From NCBI RefSeq assembly GCF_056712565.1, contig NZ_CM160072.1: a stretch of 64,000 nucleotides of DNA. The stretch is one strand, 5' to 3'. Each line of letters begins with the position of its first letter. Position 1 is the stretch's first letter. The notes below the pieces were generated by a model. The model worked only from the letters and a program-made list of their open reading frames with translations. It made no database searches and was not told the DNA's origin. The position numbers and the translations under genes are program-made. Below are positions 11,500-11,626 of this stretch, piece by piece.

Positions 11500-11626
11500 T
11501 ACTCGTCATACTTCAAGTTGCATGTGCTGCGTCTGCGTTCGCTCACCCCAGTCACTTACTTATGTAAGCTCCTGGGGATTCACTCGCTTGTCGCCTTCCT
11601 GCAACTCGAATTATTTAGAGTATATC
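11500..11626. repeat. ERIC (IRU) intergenic repeat
   Basis: Contains cgctcaccccagtcacttacttatgtaagctcctggggattcac, reverse complement of the ERIC core; imperfect palindrome of about 127 bp. Confidence 0.85.

Follow-up and report, generated by a model that had tools for sequence, protein, structure and literature searches.

The window, by which we mean the whole 64-kb stretch of DNA that was analysed, comes from the type strain of Escherichia coli (ATCC 11775 / DSM 30083) and is 100% identical to NZ_CP033092.2. The region considered here runs through pgl, ybhD (a LysR-type regulator, minus strand), ybhH, ybhI and ybhJ (plus strand), and ybhC and ybhB (minus strand), in that order. Between the TAA stop codon of ybhI (11494-11496) and the ATG of ybhJ (11679) lies a spacer of 182 nt, in which a preliminary description had placed an ERIC element flanked by a transporter gene and a hydratase gene. 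The annotation agrees on the neighbours (ybhI, an anion permease; ybhJ, a hydratase), and both the open reading frames and the RefSeq annotation confirm the intergenic position of the element. The features of the locus are as follows:

10063-11496, plus strand: ybhI, coding for an anion permease / putative tricarboxylate transporter; annotated here as a pseudogene (RefSeq 'internal stop')
11498-11499: left copy of the TA target-site duplication, from the empty-site alleles L004 and GF4-3
11500-11622, plus strand: ERIC / MITEEc1 proper, 123 nt, TACTCGTCATAC...TTTAGAGTA, with the AU-rich arm 3' on the ybhI-ybhJ sense strand
11500-11522: left terminal inverted repeat (5' hairpin arm), from palindrome search, predicted fold and family pairing
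11540-11583: conserved ERIC core, with the CCCCAGTCACTTAC/GTAAGCTCCTGGGG palindrome (11546-11577) and both ERIC-PCR primer sites
11600-11622: right terminal inverted repeat (3' arm), UGCAACUCGAAUUAUUUAGAGUA in mRNA sense, containing GAAUU at 11608-11612
11623-11624: right copy of the TA target-site duplication, from the empty-site comparison
11640-11663, plus strand: native intercistronic hairpin, CTGCGCAC-TTCACG-GTGCGCAG, 6 nt before the ybhJ Shine-Dalgarno sequence GGAG (11669-11672)
11679-13940, plus strand: ybhJ, aconitase-family hydratase, intact, 753 aa

In this strain ybhI is interrupted at codon 314 (11002-11004), where a G>A change at 11003 has turned TGG into an in-frame TAG, and two open reading frames (10063-11004 and 11011-11496) follow one another in the same frame; the codon is TGG in K-12 and in five other Escherichia lineages. 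A 55-mer with the substitution at its centre, which seeds on the TAG allele only, recovered it from 74 of 5426 complete E. coli genomes (O2:K1:H4 avian pathogenic and human isolates included), so that it is a lineage allele and not a sequencing error. Small reading frames overlying the ERIC (11518-11679, 11522-11695 and 11376-11555) are short and mutually overlapping, and were set aside. Further downstream, the convergent spacer between ybhJ and ybhC (13941-14080; 8766-8998 in L071) holds palindromic units of the REP/BIME type, and is ~93 nt longer in K-12 than in this strain by virtue of an extra tandem copy.

The identity of the element rests on its core, its ends and its target site. The two 22-mers used as standard ERIC-PCR primers, which appear jointly in 233 papers, both match exactly: ERIC1R (ATGTAAGCTCCTGGGGATTCAC) on the plus strand at 11562-11583 and ERIC2 (AAGTAAGTGACTGGGGTGAGCG) on the minus strand at 11540-11561, each having this single site in the window, where ~0.01 and 0.00 sites, respectively, would be expected from chance alone. 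Together they cover the inverted repeat of the conserved central core, whose inner palindrome pairs 11546-11559 with 11564-11577, while the outer palindrome has arms of 26 nt each (11497-11522 and 11600-11625) that are 81% complementary. The bounds were set by comparison with the unoccupied site, as the filled allele reads CTGTAAA-TA-[TACTCG...GAGTA]-TA-TCC and the empty one, L004, CTGTAAA-TA-TCC (the complete ERIC-less spacer, shared by L004 and strain GF4-3, being TAAATATCC). Since the empty allele is shorter by exactly 125 nt and the TA is doubled in the filled one, the element measures 123 nt (11500-11622) and is flanked by a duplicated TA, which together with both TA copies gives an ERIC unit of 127 nt that starts 1 nt past the ybhI TAA and stands 54 nt upstream of ybhJ. 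A length of ~127 bp with terminal inverted repeats is that of the family (55 of 72 ERIC sites in metagenomes are likewise 127 nt long), and the TA duplication, of the IS630/Tc1-mariner type, is a signature of ERICs and IS630-family MITEs (PMC2229807 Table 1, PMC3184786); ISfinder lists the ERIC as MITEEc1, within the IS630 family (PMC8613203, PMC11434687), a name that recurs in 59 of the papers searched.

The element is also dispersed, with megablast finding a median of 5 sites in an E. coli genome and 11 at most; published copy numbers are 19-21 for K-12 (PMC2267715) and ~20-30 in reviews (PMC2267715, PMC10969869). Rfam, when searched, offered no dedicated ERIC family, and the ERIC-derived entries that it did return scored below threshold: V_AS5, a Vibrio RNA that resembles ERIC, aligns with the element from end to end (E=8e-9, 46.9 bits, against a gathering score of 96), and isrH reaches 17.5 bits. 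The MG1655 record has no repeat annotation at the ybhI-ybhJ spacer, and a MITEEc1 copy between ybhJ and ybhI had already been reported in 2021 (PMC8613203). We regard it as virtually certain that this is a full-length ERIC, a non-autonomous MITE of the IS630 family that inserted at a TA one base past the ybhI stop codon, in a spacer originally of ~57 nt, and that it is an old insertion common to E. coli, Escherichia albertii and Escherichia whittamii, effectively fixed in E. coli and with no sign of current mobility. As such it is a typical, ordinary and already known copy. The identification made in the preliminary description is borne out by the core, the length, the inverted repeats, the TA duplication, the multicopy status and the hairpin; the imperfect palindrome of roughly 127 bp that it drew at 11500-11626 departs by no more than 4 nt from the bounds given here.

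The occupancy of the site was followed in the same 5426 complete E. coli genomes, a comparison which the preliminary description had proposed as a check. A 186-nt query, in which the ERIC and both flanks were needed to attain 80% coverage, found the filled junction in 5332 of them, and a 701-nt query of the locus attained 80% coverage in 5324. A 50-mer spanning the hypothetical empty junction, built in such a way that filled genomes cannot seed, found it in a single genome, that of E. coli GF4-3 from guinea fowl (L192, NZ_CP053258.1, 2480-2600); the 94 genomes in which the filled junction was not recovered are thus GF4-3 and 93 others. In C43(DE3) the ybhI-ybhJ junction was not found, the best match being the copy between cusC and cusF. 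Polymorphism for presence is therefore essentially absent, and the copy is fixed in E. coli.

The ybhI and ybhJ genes of GF4-3 are K-12-like (7% difference at four-fold degenerate sites), and a short patch at the spacer is identical to the empty allele of L004, its CCCTTC variant included. Since an L004 spacer sits amid K-12-like genes, the most natural reading of the empty site in GF4-3 is that recombination brought in a short tract from a different Escherichia lineage, with no excision involved. A second L004-like patch is found within ybhJ of the same strain (alignment columns 2711-2762).

Relatives were surveyed by a scan for the YbhI C-terminus with one genome per species, which yielded 68 loci. 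An ERIC occupies the identical position in E. albertii (L003), in E. whittamii (L007) and in the divergent 'E. coli E69' lineage (L005), and is missing from two divergent Escherichia lineages (L004 and L006) and from all the Citrobacter, Intestinirhabdus, Edwardsiella and Klebsiella loci of the scan. The spacers of L006 and Citrobacter (TAATTATTTAAAAATATCC and similar) look like the older, never-occupied state.

The sequence of the element is far more constant than that of its neighbours. Compared with the window, 12% of the four-fold degenerate sites in ybhI plus ybhJ are different in K-12, 20% in E69, 26% in E. whittamii and 30% in E. albertii, whereas the 130-nt ERIC stretch shows 1 (11501 A>T), 0, 3 (clustered at 11569-11571) and 0 differences, respectively. 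At the neutral rate, the chance of finding no change in 123 nt relative to E. albertii would be ~1e-19. In E. albertii the immediate flanks, by comparison, have changed at 3 of 47 nt upstream, within ybhI, and at 3 of 52 nt in the downstream spacer; the fact that they do differ means that a recent transfer of the whole region between species fails to explain the identity of the ERIC. High conservation was reportedly remarked upon in the 1991 description of ERICs, so that the identity with E. albertii revives a puzzle as old as that description, whether ERICs are held constant by function or by concerted evolution, rather than posing a new one.

Two explanations for this constancy were weighed. 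According to the first, the copy would be a passive relic, a dead selfish MITE that became fixed by chance and has no effect on the expression of ybhI or ybhJ, and its constancy would stem from gene conversion with the ~20 other copies or from recombination between species. Presence is not polymorphic, which gives no hint that selection is currently favouring or removing the copy; the same gene pair is kept without an ERIC in the ERIC-less Escherichia lineages and in Citrobacter; and the mosaic allele of GF4-3 indicates that short-tract recombination acts on this very spacer. Moreover, the copy is a typical member of a tight E. coli subfamily (ends TATACTCG...AGAGTATA) whose paralogs stand 0-7 nt from it, several being identical (the cusC-cusF copy among them) or 1-7 nt apart. 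Against it, the identity with E. albertii is confined to the element, as the differing flanks attest, and gene conversion among copies, which may keep one species uniform, would not by itself hold different species identical. We consider the passive relic to be rather improbable.

The second explanation, that the ybhI-ybhJ ERIC (and perhaps the whole E. coli subfamily) is under nucleotide-level purifying selection across Escherichia, having been domesticated so as to form, jointly with the more ancient hairpin that precedes ybhJ, a composite control region between the two cistrons rather than being a selfish relic homogenised by gene conversion, draws on the same 0-3 changes per 130 nt against 20-30% at neutral sites, and strikes us as equally doubtful. 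What the comparison suggests is some constraint on the ERIC sequence, be it through selection or through conversion.

The 130-nt stretch is predicted to fold into an RNA hairpin of -44.4 kcal/mol on the plus strand (z -6.2) and -54.4 kcal/mol on the minus strand (z -9.3), and no shuffled sequence was as stable, in keeping with the stable stem-loop anticipated for its transcript in the preliminary description. Structure at the level of the family was assessed by scanning metagenomes with the ERIC core pattern, whereby 120 loci were reduced to 68 distinct 127-nt sequences that form a gap-free alignment and have 68-100% identity to the ybhI-ybhJ copy. The pairs of the hairpin predicted for this copy are standard in 89% of the cells across the 68 sequences, as opposed to 24-40% once the partners are shifted 1-3 columns out of register, and 21 of the 39 pairs show changes on both sides; at the pair 11503/11619, for example, 41 sequences have C-G, 15 have T-A and 7 have A-T. 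Eleven core pairs are invariant as they were fixed by the search pattern. The covariation in the terminal repeats backs the palindrome and no specific RNA role, for recognition of both ends by a transposase would equally give this pattern.

At 11501, the second position in the left terminal repeat (TATTCTCG), K-12 and most E. coli copies from metagenomes carry T where this strain carries A. The change costs the outer stem one base pair, and no other ERIC position separates this B2 strain from phylogroup A. In E. whittamii three adjacent substitutions (CTC>TGA; L007 3059-3061, equivalent to window 11569-11571) turn the core into a perfect palindrome (CCCCAGTCACTTAC/GTAAGTGACTGGGG), a change that looks like a single hairpin-templated mutation event.

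A second, smaller hairpin (11640-11663) is predicted to fold independently of the ERIC. It is present in the ERIC-less Escherichia and, with other sequence and the pairing kept, in Citrobacter, Intestinirhabdus and Edwardsiella, with compensatory double changes in 5 of its 8 pairs. Its occurrence in ERIC-less relatives shows that it predates the insertion, and that the ERIC joined a spacer which already held a conserved structure. As it has no U-tract it is not a terminator, and it may serve in the processing or stability of the ybhJ message or else be a palindromic protein-binding site (operator).

An effect of the ERIC on relative expression or mRNA stability at this locus presumes that ybhH, ybhI and ybhJ are transcribed together. 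The scan of the plus strand from 11300 to 11800 returned neither a sigma-70-like promoter nor a terminator-like site, hence an internal ybhJ promoter or an intrinsic terminator was rejected as the primary explanation. That ybhI and ybhJ share a transcript across the ERIC is plausible, considering that no such site was found and that relatives without the ERIC have a spacer of just 26-91 nt; in published work, however, ybhHI and ybhJ figure as what may be two distinct units (PMC9068703).

For ERICs, an experimental model exists only in Yersinia. In that genus ERICs are co-transcribed with their neighbours, their orientation decides the outcome, and those adjacent to a stop codon lower the upstream transcript, as ribosomes block the hairpin and bare a site for RNase E that lies within the right-hand repeat (PMC2229807, PMC3184786, PMC10969869). 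The ybhI-ybhJ copy shares the abutment to a stop codon (the TA duplication begins at 11498, behind the TAA). In its sense 3' arm, GAAUU (11608-11612) fits, judged by eye, the RNase E motif RN|WUU, and no match to this motif was found in the arms of the opposite-strand RNA. De Gregorio et al. (2005) reportedly found that in Yersinia enterocolitica the stop-codon-proximal 'B' ERICs are the destabilising class, and the orientation of our copy would, in view of that rule and of an exploratory count which agrees with it, be 'B'. In this count of 72 metagenome ERIC sites, for which the longest-ORF calls were crude and the bins chosen post hoc, the copies no more than 2 nt from a facing stop codon had the orientation of the ybhI-ybhJ copy in 9 cases and the reverse in 0, the corresponding figures being ~5 and 12 at 3-30 nt and 10 and 19 at 31-120 nt.

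We outline the following chain of events in terms of the Yersinia model. The ERIC is probably co-transcribed with ybhI and ybhJ, and its RNA would form, right after the stop codon of ybhI, a hairpin of ~-44 kcal/mol. On terminating at this codon, ribosomes would melt the base of the hairpin and bare its AU-rich 3' arm (GAAUUAUUUAGAGUAUA) to RNase E, whose cleavage would lower the ybhI-side transcript relative to that of ybhJ. The notion that the hairpin modulates relative expression or mRNA stability, already put forward in the preliminary description, is reasonable and agrees with the Yersinia model; differential decay through RNase E at this particular copy we put forward tentatively, at somewhat less than even odds. 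In ATCC 11775 and the 73 other genomes with the premature ybhI TAG, ribosomes would halt ~490 nt before the ERIC, and ribosome-dependent unmasking would not operate; by this inference the effect would be absent or altered relative to K-12, and ybhJ might suffer from polarity.

Other roles can be imagined for a hairpin at this place. It could act as a 3'-end stabiliser that blocks 3'-to-5' exonucleases and shields the ybhH-ybhI message, as proposed for REP and for 'A-oriented' ERICs, and a very stable predicted hairpin directly 3' of ybhI would suit such a function, as would the summary according to which orientation decides whether an ERIC destabilises or not (PMC2229807). Yet the copies abutting a stop codon share the orientation of this one, which in De Gregorio 2005 is reportedly that of the destabilising class, and the spacer already held a smaller native hairpin. 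We deem the stabiliser unlikely. Partial termination or attenuation, which would lessen the read-through from ybhI to ybhJ and could invoke the long hairpin followed by a moderately U-rich stretch (UCCAUUUAUUAUCUUUCU, 11625-11642), is very improbable given the AU-rich base of the stem (UAUAC/GUAUA), a tail that falls below the T-run criterion of the scan (in which the plus strand showed no terminator-like site), and the occurrence of an identical element inside the cusCFBA operon, between cusC and cusF.

Taken as a whole, the explanation that joins the identity and origin of the ERIC with a hairpin/RNase E mechanism at ybhI-ybhJ is, in our estimate, right with a probability of about 0.9, the strengths stated above for its parts applying to those parts. 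Reports of ERIC/MITEEc1 copies are routine, and this one, being fixed in E. coli, carries no typing or mobility information and has little weight for genome annotation. The nearly isogenic filled (K-12) and empty (GF4-3) alleles, on the other hand, make up a clean natural experiment on whether a stop-codon-adjacent ERIC shifts the ratio of upstream to downstream expression.

Two observations were made at other ERIC sites. One metagenome variant at the cusC-cusF site (L076 versus L160) has TTA in place of the cusC stop codon TGA, and its frame runs on for ~135 nt into the ERIC, which would add ~45 C-terminal residues. On the metagenome contig OKVW01000499.1 (L146; ERIC at ~1041-1168, reverse strand) the left flank of ybhI is joined to the right flank of another ERIC site (that of L100, L149 and L189), and the ERIC carries the diagnostic variant of that other site (G>T at the equivalent of window 11586); the join arose either from chimeric assembly across the repeat or from genuine recombination between ERICs.

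Set against known systems, the ybhI-ybhJ copy does not differ from the ERIC / IRU / RU-1 elements of the Enterobacteriaceae, said to have been described by Sharples and Lloyd in 1990 and by Hulton et al. in 1991, with which it shares the length, the exact core, the inverted repeats, the TA duplication, the intergenic site, the long hairpin and the multicopy state. REP/BIME elements, such as those of the ybhJ-ybhC spacer in the same window, are likewise intergenic, palindromic, multicopy, transcribed within mRNAs and implicated in mRNA stability; they belong, however, to a family unrelated to ERIC, with GC-rich units of ~35 nt that are mobilised by RAYT/TnpA-REP proteins and have neither the TA duplication nor the ERIC core. 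The closest counterpart is the cusC-cusF ERIC of E. coli, 127/127 identical to the ybhI-ybhJ copy and in the same orientation relative to its operon, the known cusCFBA; it differs in its locus and in starting 5-6 nt past the cusC stop codon, versus 1 nt past that of ybhI. With the 'B-oriented' ERICs of Y. enterocolitica our copy has in common the adjacent upstream stop codon, an AU-rich right-hand repeat 3' on the mRNA and a hairpin that terminating ribosomes could open, whereas it differs from them in being known from its sequence, in an orientation matched by inference, and in following, in this strain, a gene that is prematurely terminated.
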